Shown one piece after another: positions 4,276 through 60,928 of a DNA stretch of 64,000 nucleotides. Source of the stretch: Aquificaceae bacterium (GTDB lineage: Bacteria; Aquificota; Aquificia; Aquificales; Aquificaceae). Location: NCBI GenBank assembly GCA_037924335.1, contig JAXSMZ010000002.1:70338-134337 (forward strand), read 5' to 3'. Under the pieces are notes generated by a model that was given only the letters and a program-made list of their open reading frames with translations, made no database searches and had not been told where the DNA came from. Position numbers and translations under genes: made by a program. Each line of letters begins with the position of its first letter. The stretch's first letter is position 1.

Positions 4276-5564
4276 CAGGGAGAACCGGGTGAACCGCTAC
4301 AGTCTTTGCAAAGGTGTATGGGATGAACACCAAATATGGTATTTAGCATGCTCTCTTCGAAGAAGGGAGCTACGTCTCCACGCTTTACCTTCCATAGAAA
4401 GTACTTTTCAAAAGCTGTCTTAAACCAATGCATCCATACAGCTTTTTTGTACTTTACCACCGACCTTGGTGGAAGCACTGGGGATGCAAAAAATCCCATT
4501 GCATCACCTCCCATGTCTGCTATGCATATGGCAGAGAGCTCTGGTGCGTATCTATCCGTTGAGTTTCTTATGTCATTTACTATGTTATGAGCAACGGCAA
4601 GTGCCATCTGTTCTATCATCATCCCTGTCTTTGGAGCTCCAGTAGGTATGGGTGTTTGTTCAACTGGTGGTATGGCTGTTACAACTCCAACGCCGTATAT
4701 GTTTTTGTAAGTTGGGTTTTGGAAGCATCTGTTGACCAGGACCATCTTGTTGGCTGGGTTTGCCACCTTATCACCGGCAGAAGCAACCACATCTGGACCC
4801 ATAAACCTGGGCATGATCATGGAAAGCTTGCATGGTACTTCGTAAGTTTTTCCTTCTAAGTCTTCGTATATCACCTTATCCTGTTCTACCTTTGTTATCT
4901 TTACGTTAGTTATGTACTTTATACTCCTCTCTGCCATGATGTCTTCCATGAGCCTCCTTGATGGTCCTACACCACCAAGTCCCATGTGTCCTACGTAAGG
5001 TTCTGATGTTATATAGGTTATGGGTACTTTATGTCTTAGTCCCCTCTTCTTGAGTTCGTGATGTAGCATAAAGGCAAACTCGTAGGCTGGACCAAAACAG
5101 CTAACGCCAGGTATTGCACCAACAACCACTGGTTCAGGGTTCTTGTAAAACTCCTCAAGCCTTCTGTTTAGTTCCATGGCATGTTCTGCTGTACAAACTG
5201 ACGTGGAGTTCTGCTCCTGTCCCTCTGCACCAAAGACCAGTTTGGGTCCCGTAGCAATTACCAGATAATCGTAAGATATCTCTTTGCCACCTTTGGTTTT
5301 TAGCTTGTTTGCATCTGGGTCTATGCTTTCACCGTCTTCGTTTACAAAGTCTATGCCATGTTTTGAAAGCAGTTGTGCTAACGGAAGCGTTATGCTGTCA
5401 AAGGTTCTCCAACCTAAAGCAAGGTGAGGATAGGCAGGTGTAAAACCAAAGTAGGGCCTTCCTGACACTACAGTTATCTTTACGCTTTTATCCAACTTCC
5501 TGAGGTCATAGGCAGTGGCTATTCCGCCCATTCCACCGCCTAATATGACTACATGCTTACTCAT
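4272..5564 (-). CDS. sqr: Sulfide:quinone oxidoreductase
   Basis: GGGMGG FAD fold, SVCT, SCFGPAYEF, PKTGMMIE, AICIADMG. Confidence 0.95.
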   Translation of the reverse strand: MSKHVVILGGGMGGIATAYDLRKLDKSVKITVVSGRPYFGFTPAYPHLALGWRTFDSITLPLAQLLSKHGIDFVNEDGESIDPDANKLKTKGGKEISYDYLVIATGPKLVFGAEGQEQNSTSVCTAEHAMELNRRLEEFYKNPEPVVVGAIPGVSCFGPAYEFAFMLHHELKKRGLRHKVPITYITSEPYVGHMGLGGVGPSRRLMEDIMAERSIKYITNVKITKVEQDKVIYEDLEGKTYEVPCKLSMIMPRFMGPDVVASAGDKVANPANKMVLVNRCFQNPTYKNIYGVGVVTAIPPVEQTPIPTGAPKTGMMIEQMALAVAHNIVNDIRNSTDRYAPELSAICIADMGGDAMGFFASPVLPPRSVVKYKKAVWMHWFKTAFEKYFLWKVKRGDVAPFFEESMLNTIFGVHPIHLCKDCSGSPGSPC

Positions 5565-43266: not shown

Positions 43267-43274
43267 TTTTTAAC

Positions 43275-43502
43275 ATAAATCTTGCAAGAAGTCTCCATCC
43301 TCTATAGGGTGGAGATGAATTGCAAAAACTTGACAAAGTTCATATGTCAGTCTATAATTATTTGTAGCTCTGAAAACCAAAGAGTTGGGCTCACCCACCT
43401 AACGGGTGGTAGGGCTGGAACGGTCCGAACTGAAGCCTGTGGAGAGGTGAAAAGCCTCCATGAAGCAGGAAGCTCCATCTTCTATAAGATGGAGTAGTTC
43501 AC
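43275..43502 (+). mobile_element. Non-autonomous IS200/IS605-type mini-element A
   Basis: Follows TTAAC; left hairpin CTCCATCCT-CTAT-AGGGTGGAG; right hairpin CTCCATCTT-CTAT-AAGATGGAG, then TTCAC; homolog at 59859-60072. Confidence 0.85.
43330..43358 (+). promoter_or_regulatory. Consensus sigma70 promoter inside element A
   Basis: TTGACA-17 bp-TATAAT. Confidence 0.85.
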
Positions 43503-58981: not shown

Positions 58982-59449
58982 TTATTTGAGTATGTTTATT
59001 ACATTCCTCCCCGTCTTGCTGGCTAGTTCAGCCATGCCACCTTTTAGCATGAAGGCATTGTCAAACCCTATCATTCTCAGAGCCATCGTGACAGGCGCTG
59101 CTCTTGTACCCGTATGACACACTACTACTATCTTCTTATCCTTTGGAAGCTTTCTGAGATTCTCTTCTTTAAACAGTTCATGCATTGGTATTCTTAGAGC
59201 GTTTTTATAAGTTATTCCAACAACTCCCATCTCCTGAGGCGTCCTTATGTCCAAAATAACAACTTCATCCTTACTCATAAGCTCATGGAGCTGTCTAGAA
59301 TCAATCTCACACGGCTTTTTTGCAACTACTTCAGGCGTTAACTGCGAAAACATACCGTCAAACTTCTTGGCAAGGTCGGCATCAAAGCTGTAAGCCTTTC
59401 CTACAAATAAGAAGGTCAAAAAGGCAACGACCAATTTCGCTTTTCTCAT
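58982..59449 (-). CDS. Exported rhodanese-domain protein
   Basis: Signal peptide (AYS), LDIRTPQE, VVCHTGTRA, LKGG. Confidence 0.9.
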   Translation of the reverse strand: MRKAKLVVAFLTFLFVGKAYSFDADLAKKFDGMFSQLTPEVVAKKPCEIDSRQLHELMSKDEVVILDIRTPQEMGVVGITYKNALRIPMHELFKEENLRKLPKDKKIVVVCHTGTRAAPVTMALRMIGFDNAFMLKGGMAELASKTGRNVINILK

Positions 59450-59574
59450 AGCATAACCCCCTTTAAGTTTTAATGGTTATATCTTAATATAAGAATTCAA
59501 TTATGTCAAGCAAAAGCAAGGGTGCACTTAACCTCTTGCAATTTTCTCCAGCTGAGAAAGTTTATCCGTTTTAC

Positions 59575-59792
59575 GAAACCTCCACAAGAAGGCTCTCCTT
59601 TTCAAAGGAGAGATGAATTGTGGAAATATGATTAAAATCATACAACAAAAACAAAGAAAAAATTATTATAATAATAATAATAATAATAATATCCTCTGGT
59701 ATGCGGGATATAGCATACCCTACCGTTGGACTGACGGGAAGTTAAGCCCTGAGGAAGGGAAGCTCCTCATTTTAATGAGGAGAGGAAGTCAC
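59575..59792 (+). mobile_element. Non-autonomous IS200/IS605-type mini-element C (different subfamily)
   Basis: Follows TTTAC; left end TCCACAA-GAAGG-CTCTCCTT..AAGGAGAG-ATGAA-TTGTGGA; TACCGTTGGACTGACGGGAAGTTAAGCC; right hairpin CTCCTCAT-TTTA-ATGAGGAG, then GTCAC. Confidence 0.75.
59670..59690 (+). repeat. (AAT)7 microsatellite
   Basis: Read directly from the sequence. Confidence 0.95.
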
Positions 59793-59858
59793 CTACAACG
59801 ATGAGAATATCTCCTTCCTTAATTATTGTCTGCGATGATTGTATGAGCCATTTTTAAC

Positions 59859-60072
59859 ACAACTTTTTGCAAGAAGTCTCCGAGATGAATTGCAAAAAAC
59901 TTGACAAAGAAAGGAAAATAAAATACAATATAAAAAGTCCTGATAACCAAAGGAATGGGCTCACTCACCTAACGGGTGGTAGGGCAGGGACTGTCCGAAC
60001 TCAAGCCTGTGGAGAGGTGAAAAACCTCTATAAAGCAGGAAGCTCCCACTTCTATAAGTGGGAATAGTTCAC
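59859..60072 (+). mobile_element. Non-autonomous IS200/IS605-type mini-element B (homolog of A, left hairpin deleted)
   Basis: Follows TTAAC; colinear with 43275-43502; TTGACA(59901)-17-TACAAT(59924); right hairpin TCCCACTT-CTAT-AAGTGGGA, then TTCAC. Confidence 0.85.
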
Positions 60073-60145
60073 CTTTTCAATTATCATATATCCAATAGTA
60101 CCGAAGGCTAAGACTACAAAAAGTAAATCCTTAGATGACTATTCA

Positions 60146-60928
60146 TCACATGTTTTTAAAACCCAGAAGCTCTCTTAGCTTTTCAGCTGGATCCTCACTC
60201 CTCATTAGACTGGTACCTATCAGGAAGGCATCCACTCCCAAGCTTTGGATCTCTTCTATCTCCTGCCTTTTGCTTATGCCACTTTCAGCTATCAAAAAAG
60301 GAGCTCCCATTCTCTTTATATGAGGTGCCAACCTTTTGGAAAGACTTATGTCCACTTTTAGGGTCTCCAAGTCTCTGTTGTTTATGCCTATGACCCTTGC
60401 TCCGTGCTTTAGGGAAAGCTCCGCCTCTTGAAGGCTAAAGACTTCAACTAATGGCATGAGGGAAAGCTCATAGGAGTAAGCTATGAGGTCTTTTAGCCTT
60501 ACCTCATCTAGCATACGGACTATCAAAAGTACTCCATCTGCTCCAAATGCTTTTGCCTCTTCTACCTGAACTTCATCAATGATAAAGTCTTTTCTAAGTA
60601 TAGGTATGCTGACCTTCCGTCTTACCTCTTTTATGTCTTCCAGAGATCCTTTGAAAAAGCCTCTGTCTGTCAAAACAGATACAGCCACTGCACCAGCCCT
60701 TTGATATATCTGTGCTTGATCACTTGCAGACACATCCTTTATATCACCAGCAGATGGAGACGCTCTCTTTACCTCTGCTATGACCTTAGTCCCTTCCTTT
60801 TTTAACGCATCTTCAAAGGATGGAAAAACCTCCCTCTCTTCTATAAGCTCCCAGAGCTTTTTTCTGTAATCTCTTTCCCTATTTATCTCTTCCCTCTTTA
60901 CTTGTGCTATCCTCTCAAGAAAGCTCAT
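60146..60928 (-). CDS. trpC: Indole-3-glycerol phosphate synthase
   Basis: IAEVKRASPS, SVLTD, LRKDFI, GINNRDL, AESGI. Confidence 0.97.
   Translation of the reverse strand: MSFLERIAQVKREEINRERDYRKKLWELIEEREVFPSFEDALKKEGTKVIAEVKRASPSAGDIKDVSASDQAQIYQRAGAVAVSVLTDRGFFKGSLEDIKEVRRKVSIPILRKDFIIDEVQVEEAKAFGADGVLLIVRMLDEVRLKDLIAYSYELSLMPLVEVFSLQEAELSLKHGARVIGINNRDLETLKVDISLSKRLAPHIKRMGAPFLIAESGISKRQEIEEIQSLGVDAFLIGTSLMRSEDPAEKLRELLGFKNM

Follow-up and report, generated by a model that had tools for sequence, protein, structure and literature searches.

The 215-nucleotide (nt) mini-element at 59858-60072 is quite probably a protein-free derivative of an IS605-type element, namely, a PATE with a standalone omegaRNA, that has lost the tip of its left end, is probably immobile, and is starting to decay. 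The element (copy B) lies in a 64,000-nt stretch of an Aquificaceae contig, here called the window; the source genome (G000) is an assembly of 1.53 Mb in 39 contigs. From 5' to 3', copy B consists of a left end, a sigma-70 promoter, a 5' hairpin, a TnpB omegaRNA, and a right end. A sister element in the same window (copy A) and copies in related genomes were used for comparison.

Anatomy and boundaries of the mini-element

59858-60072, + strand: mini-element (copy B), 215 nt, protein-free IS200/IS605
59853-59857, + strand: target motif (TAM) TTTAA, host DNA directly outside the element
59858-59900, + strand: left end, from alignment to copy A, DNA folds, and the left end on contig C35
59901-59929, + strand: sigma-70-type promoter, TTGACA-17-TACAAT, with a predicted start at about 59936
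59936-59956, + strand: 5' leader hairpin with loop GAUAACCAA (59942-59950), from fold and covariation
59957-60072, + strand: TnpB omegaRNA scaffold, including the right-end hairpin (60044-60063) and terminal TCAC; shared with tnpB 3' ends, and supported by fold and covariation
60073-60092, + strand: predicted guide, which is host flank between the element and the 3' end of a trpC-like gene
43274-43502, + strand: copy A, sister mini-element with an intact left end; near-identical copies on contigs C4 and C23
59575-59792, + strand: second, unrelated IS200/IS605 mini-element, 65 nt upstream, with a TTTAC target and its own left and right hairpins

No protein-coding gene lies between the ends of copy B, as in a PATE; its only open reading frame (ORF) encodes 66 aa and ends in a remnant of the tnpB C-terminal tail. 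Because its ends and scaffold are shared with elements that carry tnpA and tnpB, copy B is interpreted as an internal-deletion derivative of an IS605-type element. Rfam gave no match at gathering score in the 64-kb window, and none of the four subthreshold hits in 59500-60200 falls on the element.

The boundary was decided by empty orthologous sites in the closest sister species (G006), where the sites corresponding to copy A and the C4 copy have TTTAA immediately before the right flank. Copy B therefore starts with the C at 59858 and has TTTAA as its target motif, which corrects the TTAAC motif proposed by a sequence-only reading of the window. With the TTTAA boundary, the ORF that the C23 copy interrupts stays open over 355 codons; with the extra C, it does not. 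The frame test at the C4 site favored the opposite boundary (364 codons with the C); in keeping with the G005 sequence, this conflict is put down to an overlap of two genes. TTTAA is found 5' of 23 of the 45 matches to a left-end-like pattern, and most of the other 22 are located in unrelated host sequence. Insertion 3' of a fixed motif, with no target duplication and a scarless empty site, is seen at the G006 sites and at the joint in the X8 contig described below.

Left-end damage and the locus in other strains

The sequence-only reading noted that 15 nt of the left-end hairpin are deleted in copy B, and this deletion is present, between 59881 and 59882. The missing letters form the apical part of the subterminal hairpin, which is intact in a C35 left end with a near-identical 5' segment. 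The predicted DNA fold of the left end drops from -11.8 kcal/mol in copy A to -6.8 kcal/mol in copy B, and the inner stem has 4 pairs instead of 11. Copy B retains the outer stem together with AAGT (59874-59877), the putative guide tetranucleotide. The rule by which AAGT pairs with TTAA, position by position, we take to be that of the IS608 work. The earlier statement that this copy probably cannot be mobilized by TnpA holds insofar as the hairpin is crippled; immobility itself is only probable. Copy A, for its part, is inserted in the 3' end of a minus-strand mscS-like gene (43482-43502), which now ends inside the right-end hairpin.

Left-end damage was surveyed across the 64 scaffold matches from the source genome and the fetched loci of its relatives, after 20 coding copies, 2 copies cut by contig ends, 7 with another upstream type, and 1 unclassifiable copy were set aside. 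Sorted by eye, the remaining 34 minis comprise 20 with a whole left end, 10 in which the left end is damaged or missing but the promoter region remains, and 4 in which the promoter is deleted too; damage thus affects 14 of the 34 classifiable minis. A promoter match was present in 18/20 minis with whole left ends versus 7/14 damaged ones (7/10 where the promoter region remains); these seven include copy B, and L186 and L205 may have a different short left end. Given these counts, loss of the left end that spares the promoter is common, and one deletion is enough to produce it. Independent deletions that run from the left-end hairpin into an omegaRNA hairpin, removing promoter and leader, were observed in three genomes (L131 on contig C20, L038, and L041). 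A multicopy class in G014 and G019 (L029, L193, L195, L198, L199, L201, and L202) has the same scaffold start, preceded by a different long conserved sequence without a recognizable tnpB end or sigma-70 match.

In G006, 53 nt separate trpC from the decarboxylase gene, with neither the rhodanese gene nor either of the mini-elements present; the intergenic sequence beside trpC is likewise absent from 29 other fetched trpC loci. The locus was further compared in four sequencing runs (X1, X5, X8, and X9). In X1 and X5, the filled form is unchanged. X8 yielded a 4,703-nt contig from a strain that is ∼96% identical (63 differing letters in 1,584, over four pieces of two contigs). This contig skips the upstream mini-element exactly (218 nt) and joins 59858 to 60073, with a short side of 21 letters and the interval flagged as "between: not known"; an additional ∼790 letters separate the piece at 59837 from that at 60073. 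The joint is read as an empty site, given that its two breaks coincide with element ends, and the flag may be explained by a one-letter overlap at the junction C. X9, an RNA run from another study (record 27), yielded a contig over 59830-60012 with six differences and no gap, from a strain that differs by ∼3%; it begins ∼100 nt upstream of the predicted start, does not show strand or ends, and is not counted as expression. Since the X9 contig is gap-free, the deleted form is common to another strain and is not very young. A search of 90 family genomes with 60073-60200 returned only the trpC end or weak matches and no genome with an empty site, and JGI metagenome scans for the right flank returned nothing.

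Two neighboring features are also of note. The rhodanese-domain gene (58982-59449), located between the decarboxylase gene and trpC, has an N-terminal hydrophobic stretch; G006 lacks it, and the X8 strain has it. Left ends of the 59575-59792 type occur eight times in the genome, seven of them with a right end nearby, and the copy in the window contains an expanded AAT run. No tnpB with a right end of this type was clearly found in the genome, where one loose match is located on C4.

Promoter, leader hairpin, and omegaRNA scaffold across the family

The element profile has matches in 13 of 41 genomes. In the source genome, it detects whole protein-free elements (copies A and B and those on C4 and C23) and deleted ones on C20 and C19; copies A and B and those on C4, C23, and C20 are dispersed, with different flanks. 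A matching left end heads tnpA/tnpB elements in G007, G065, G002, and G003 and on contig C16, and the omegaRNA scaffold lies directly 3' of tnpB on contigs C37, C39, and C1. On C37, tnpB is also followed by a matching right end. The G007 element is arranged as left end, TTGACA-17-TATAAT, tnpA (with one stop), tnpB, RNA, and right end. In G003, the family TnpB is 411 aa long and reaches 346 bits against the RNA-guided TnpB model (cutoff, 100) and 410 against the IS200/IS605 TnpB model, slightly below the cutoff of 425, and all three RuvC acidic residues are present, as read by eye. A combined leader and scaffold pattern matched seven stretches in the GTDB collection, all seven titled Aquificaceae, Aquifex, or Aquificales.

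The source genome contains 23 TnpB zinc-finger matches, many at contig ends. TnpB pieces at contig ends keep the catalytic residues, the C16 copy being frameshifted and those on C37, C39, and C1 partial, and no intact full-length cognate tnpB is present in the assembly. No Y1 TnpA was detected in this genome by hidden Markov model or by tblastn with the TnpA of three relatives, nor was an IS607-type resolvase; Y1 TnpA is present in 15 of 90 family genomes. The missing tnpA and tnpB may reside in collapsed repeats at contig ends. On C16 (positions 1-691), tnpB follows an intact left end, is frameshifted near codons 80-85, and runs off the contig. On C1 (215962-216255) and C35 (1-143), a family tnpB element is inserted in reverse into the promoter-leader region of a mini with another left end (TTTAG); because of the reverse insertion, the guide of the inserted element is antisense to the promoter region of that mini.

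The -35 box (TTGACA, 59901-59906) and the -10 box (TACAAT, 59924-59929) of copy B, separated by 17 nt, match 11 of the 12 consensus positions, and a consensus promoter scan taken alone is at chance (2 sites versus 2.3 expected). As the sequence-only reading stated, the boxes and the spacing are kept relative to copy A while the spacer has changed: 11/12 box positions are identical versus 5/17 in the spacer (Fisher P = 0.002; for the -10 box alone, post hoc, 5/6 versus 2/14, P = 0.007). Among 14 distinct family promoters, column identity is 0.79 for the -10 box versus 0.48 for the spacer, with the -35 box, the alignment anchor, left uncounted; position and spacing recur. The spacer of copy B matches the others at 1 to 6 of 17 positions. 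A second copy with the same A-rich spacer was not found, and a JGI metagenome scan for the promoter of copy B returned nothing.

These 14 promoters follow the same left end in coding and protein-free elements alike. Since this left end and TTGACA-17-TATAAT also head relatives that carry tnpA and tnpB, the promoter constraint is not specific to copy B. To judge from the sequence comparison, the position of the promoter is inherited from a coding parent, and the several unrelated spacers of constant length indicate selection for transcription in the mobile family. Of the proposed selection on the boxes and stems of this copy, the family-wide constraint is borne out, but not a constraint on copy B after its loss of mobility.

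The leader hairpin begins at the predicted +1, between promoter and scaffold. Its loop consensus, GAUARYCAA, occurs in protein-free elements of 14 genomes, which belong to two families. The promoter-plus-loop pattern occurs at 40 places in 24 of 148 genomes versus 8 for the reversed control; 30 loci were fetched, of which 17 (14 genomes, two families) have a downstream scaffold and 13 do not, one of the latter being a left end, promoter, and hairpin in front of a host gene. In 12 chosen sequences (10 of these 17 loci, copy A, and the C19 copy), 6/6 stem pairs show two-sided change, with a score of 0.84 against at most 0.27 for slid controls; the score is optimistic, the 7 loci left out being 5 from the second family, with stems of 2 to 3 pairs, and 2 further G002 copies, 1 of them degenerate. 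The second-family loci (L172, L174, L176, L183, and L184) combine the GAUAACCAA loop and this short stem with another conserved stretch, ∼50 nt long, ahead of the scaffold. No leader hairpin was seen in tnpB-bearing copies, where the ORF occupies its place, and minis of G007, of G018, and of one G004 type lack it as well. In copy B, the hairpin is weak, with one mismatch and -3.2 kcal/mol.

The leader hairpin has no Rfam match, and the literature searched contained no description of it, although PATE promoters or leaders may be listed in preprint supplements; a covarying GAUARYCAA hairpin in protein-free copies appears to be new. Our best guess is that it protects the 5' end. At L149/L164 (G074:C1, ∼901400-901500), left end, promoter, and leader occur without a scaffold, directly 5' of the ribosome-binding site and start codon of a host gene, possibly as a donated promoter.

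The scaffold folds with a z-score of -2.8. In an alignment of 16 scaffolds, 4 of them tnpB bearing, 94.1% of cells are paired and 17 of 36 pairs have changed on both sides; slid controls reach 43 to 50%, and none of 500 shuffles attains the observed level, a test inflated by relatedness. A de novo consensus recovers four of the same helices. The two compensatory stem swaps that had been reported between copies A and B are both real and preserve pairing, but the larger alignment identifies this covariation as a property of the whole family. A GAACU/AGUUC pseudoknot, which lacks two-sided change, is not claimed, and a predicted pairing between guide and leader is regarded as fortuitous, since copies that have other guides share the conserved loop.

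Between 59955 and 60072, copy B differs from copy A at 14 positions, and 12 of these differences occur in other family rows; the well-kept promoter and RNA folds are therefore interpreted as inherited from the mobile family. Within the genome, each stem half of copy B is found in the tnpB-bearing copies on C1, C37, or C39. The two private differences are G-to-A changes at 60032 and 60064, both G in 15/15 other rows; in a wider set, the first position is G in 33/35 sequences and the pair at the second is kept in 33/35. The change at 60064 breaks a C-G pair at the foot of the right-end hairpin, and neither private change is compensatory. Together they look like a signature of early decay, though two sites are few. 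The RNA unit previously described as intact is indeed a structured TnpB-type omegaRNA behind its own promoter, but these changes hit invariant sites. A tree of 18 omegaRNA cores, which neither dates copy B nor names its parent, places it in an unresolved group with copy A and those on C4, C20, and C37. As a separate observation, the right-end hairpins of two tnpB copies (C37:832-948 and C39:134-286) have one arm of each allele, mismatched, suggesting gene conversion among copies or chimeric assembly.

Guide, alternative explanations, and known systems

The sequence-only reading pointed to a different guide in copy B and proposed a search for its targets. The guide does differ, as different insertion sites ensure automatically, which lends no support to a function; because the X8 contig joins across the element, the "guide" is mere flanking DNA. 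A search for TTAAC followed by the guide used the wrong junction (12 viral hits versus 2 and 13 for shuffled controls). With TTTAA, no target above chance was found: the best match at 5,509 sites of the own genome was 12/16 with a 4-nt seed (longest seed, 6); TTTAA plus 13 nt gave 7 hits in viral contigs, none exceeding 16/20 guide letters, versus 2 and at least 120 for two shuffled controls; and 148 genomes of the order gave 1 hit versus 7 control hits. The sole real target of the guide, as for any TnpB element (PMC8612924), is the empty allele.

These observations can be accommodated in a simple life cycle. While mobile, minis would be moved by TnpA in trans. The promoter of a mini would yield an omegaRNA whose last ∼16 to 20 nt are flanking DNA, with which TnpB from other copies would cut the empty site (TTTAA plus flank), and repair would copy the element back. 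Protection would extend only to minis with a working promoter and fold, keeping boxes and stems conserved family-wide while spacers turn over. Copy B would have been inserted at 59857/59858, after which one deletion removed the tip of its left-end hairpin; it may remain transcribed.

Copy B could instead be locked in place and still home: TnpA would no longer excise it, the omegaRNA with TnpB in trans would still cut incoming empty alleles, and selection would continue. An empty allele, the exact predicted target, does appear to exist in the X8 strain, the deleted form appears to be shared with the X9 strain, and most damaged minis that hold the promoter region (7/10) keep the promoter match. 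We nevertheless regard continued homing as decidedly unlikely, since both private core changes are at invariant positions, the leader is the weakest of the eight folded, the promoter is kept in only half of all damaged minis compared with 18/20 whole ones, a single promoter-sparing deletion is expected without selection, and an intact cognate tnpB is unassembled. That the copy is still mobilizable is less likely again. The shortened hairpin on its 9-bp outer stem, together with the intact guide tetranucleotide, would have to be enough for TnpA; the left end does still fold (z = -2.4), and the motif on the 5' side of its hairpin is the same as before, but the inner stem has only 4 pairs left, and TnpA binds subterminal hairpins of ∼20 to 25 nt, alongside recognition through the guide tetranucleotide (PMC6006769). 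Moreover, no second copy with the deletion was found, and the foot pair of the right-end hairpin is broken.

The sequence-only reading favored a functional or domesticated noncoding RNA, an immobilized guide RNA kept by the host for regulation or defense, for which the near-consensus promoter, the foldable scaffold, and the damaged left end could be cited. This view is largely refuted and retains hardly any credibility: every stem allele and the promoter layout recur in tnpB-bearing mobile relatives, the locus is polymorphic, the element is absent beside trpC in the 29 other genomes with fetched trpC loci, the ∼96% identical strain skips it, no guide target above chance was found, and the TnpB pieces, unlike TldR, keep their catalytic residues. 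The preferred reading, of an immobilized PATE in early decay, makes copy B an ordinary life stage of a known kind of element and not evidence of domestication.

A more speculative, and on balance rather improbable, extension concerns the family as a whole. Minis of this order may have evolved a dedicated expression module for guides acting in trans, consisting of a sigma-70 promoter, rebuilt several times with unrelated spacers, and a 5'-terminal hairpin whose GAUARYCAA loop is recognized to stabilize the RNA or to load it on TnpB, with copies that lack a left end becoming TnpA-independent homing drives. If so, copies such as B would mark a step from a transposon to a fixed guide-RNA gene. 

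The family-level result does not depend on this extension. Across genera, boxes, spacing, and leader are conserved but spacers are not, evidence at the sequence level for selection on protein-free copies to express their guides. Because copy A is whole, copy B has its left end cut, and both the empty sites and the TTTAA motif are known, the two form a natural pair on which this idea can be tested directly; they also supply a compact design of promoter and guide from a TnpB family of thermophilic origin.

An IS605 remnant resembling a PATE is described in PMC7290912, and strong native promoters in IS605 elements are reported in 10.64898/2026.09.24.754181. In the homing model for ISDra2, TnpB and its reRNA cleave the donor joint (PMC8612924); the family studied here shares with ISDra2 a 5-nt TAM and an RNA formed by the right end and ∼16 nt of flank, whereas ISDra2 encodes TnpA and TnpB, uses TTGAT rather than TTTAA, and has an RNA overlapping the tnpB ORF in place of one with its own promoter. 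TldR guide RNAs are similar in being of TnpB origin and in that they may have left mobility behind (10.1101/2023.11.30.569447). TldR loci, however, are without transposon ends, have a dead RuvC, and have conserved promoter targets, whereas here the ends are recognizable, the RuvC residues are present, an adjacent protein is absent, and no target was found. Standalone omegaRNAs of OMEGA systems, which are reported to act in trans and whose biological role is stated as unknown (Altae-Tran 2021, as summarized in PMC10691335), are likewise mobilized, lack an effector and a transposase of their own, and occur in genomes with effector loci. Gene-less PATE-like elements often encode omegaRNAs that need TnpB in trans (10.1101/2023.03.14.532601). 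The Geobacillus ISGst PATEs of that report are similar to copy B in lacking ORFs and in combining ends of a tnpB family, a right-end omegaRNA, a need (predicted for copy B) for TnpA and TnpB in trans, and a guide from the flank; the internal sigma-70 promoter with several unrelated spacers and the covarying leader of copy B and its relatives are not mentioned for those PATEs, and copy B further differs in its partly deleted left hairpin. The element is thus of a kind already known, a PATE or standalone omegaRNA.
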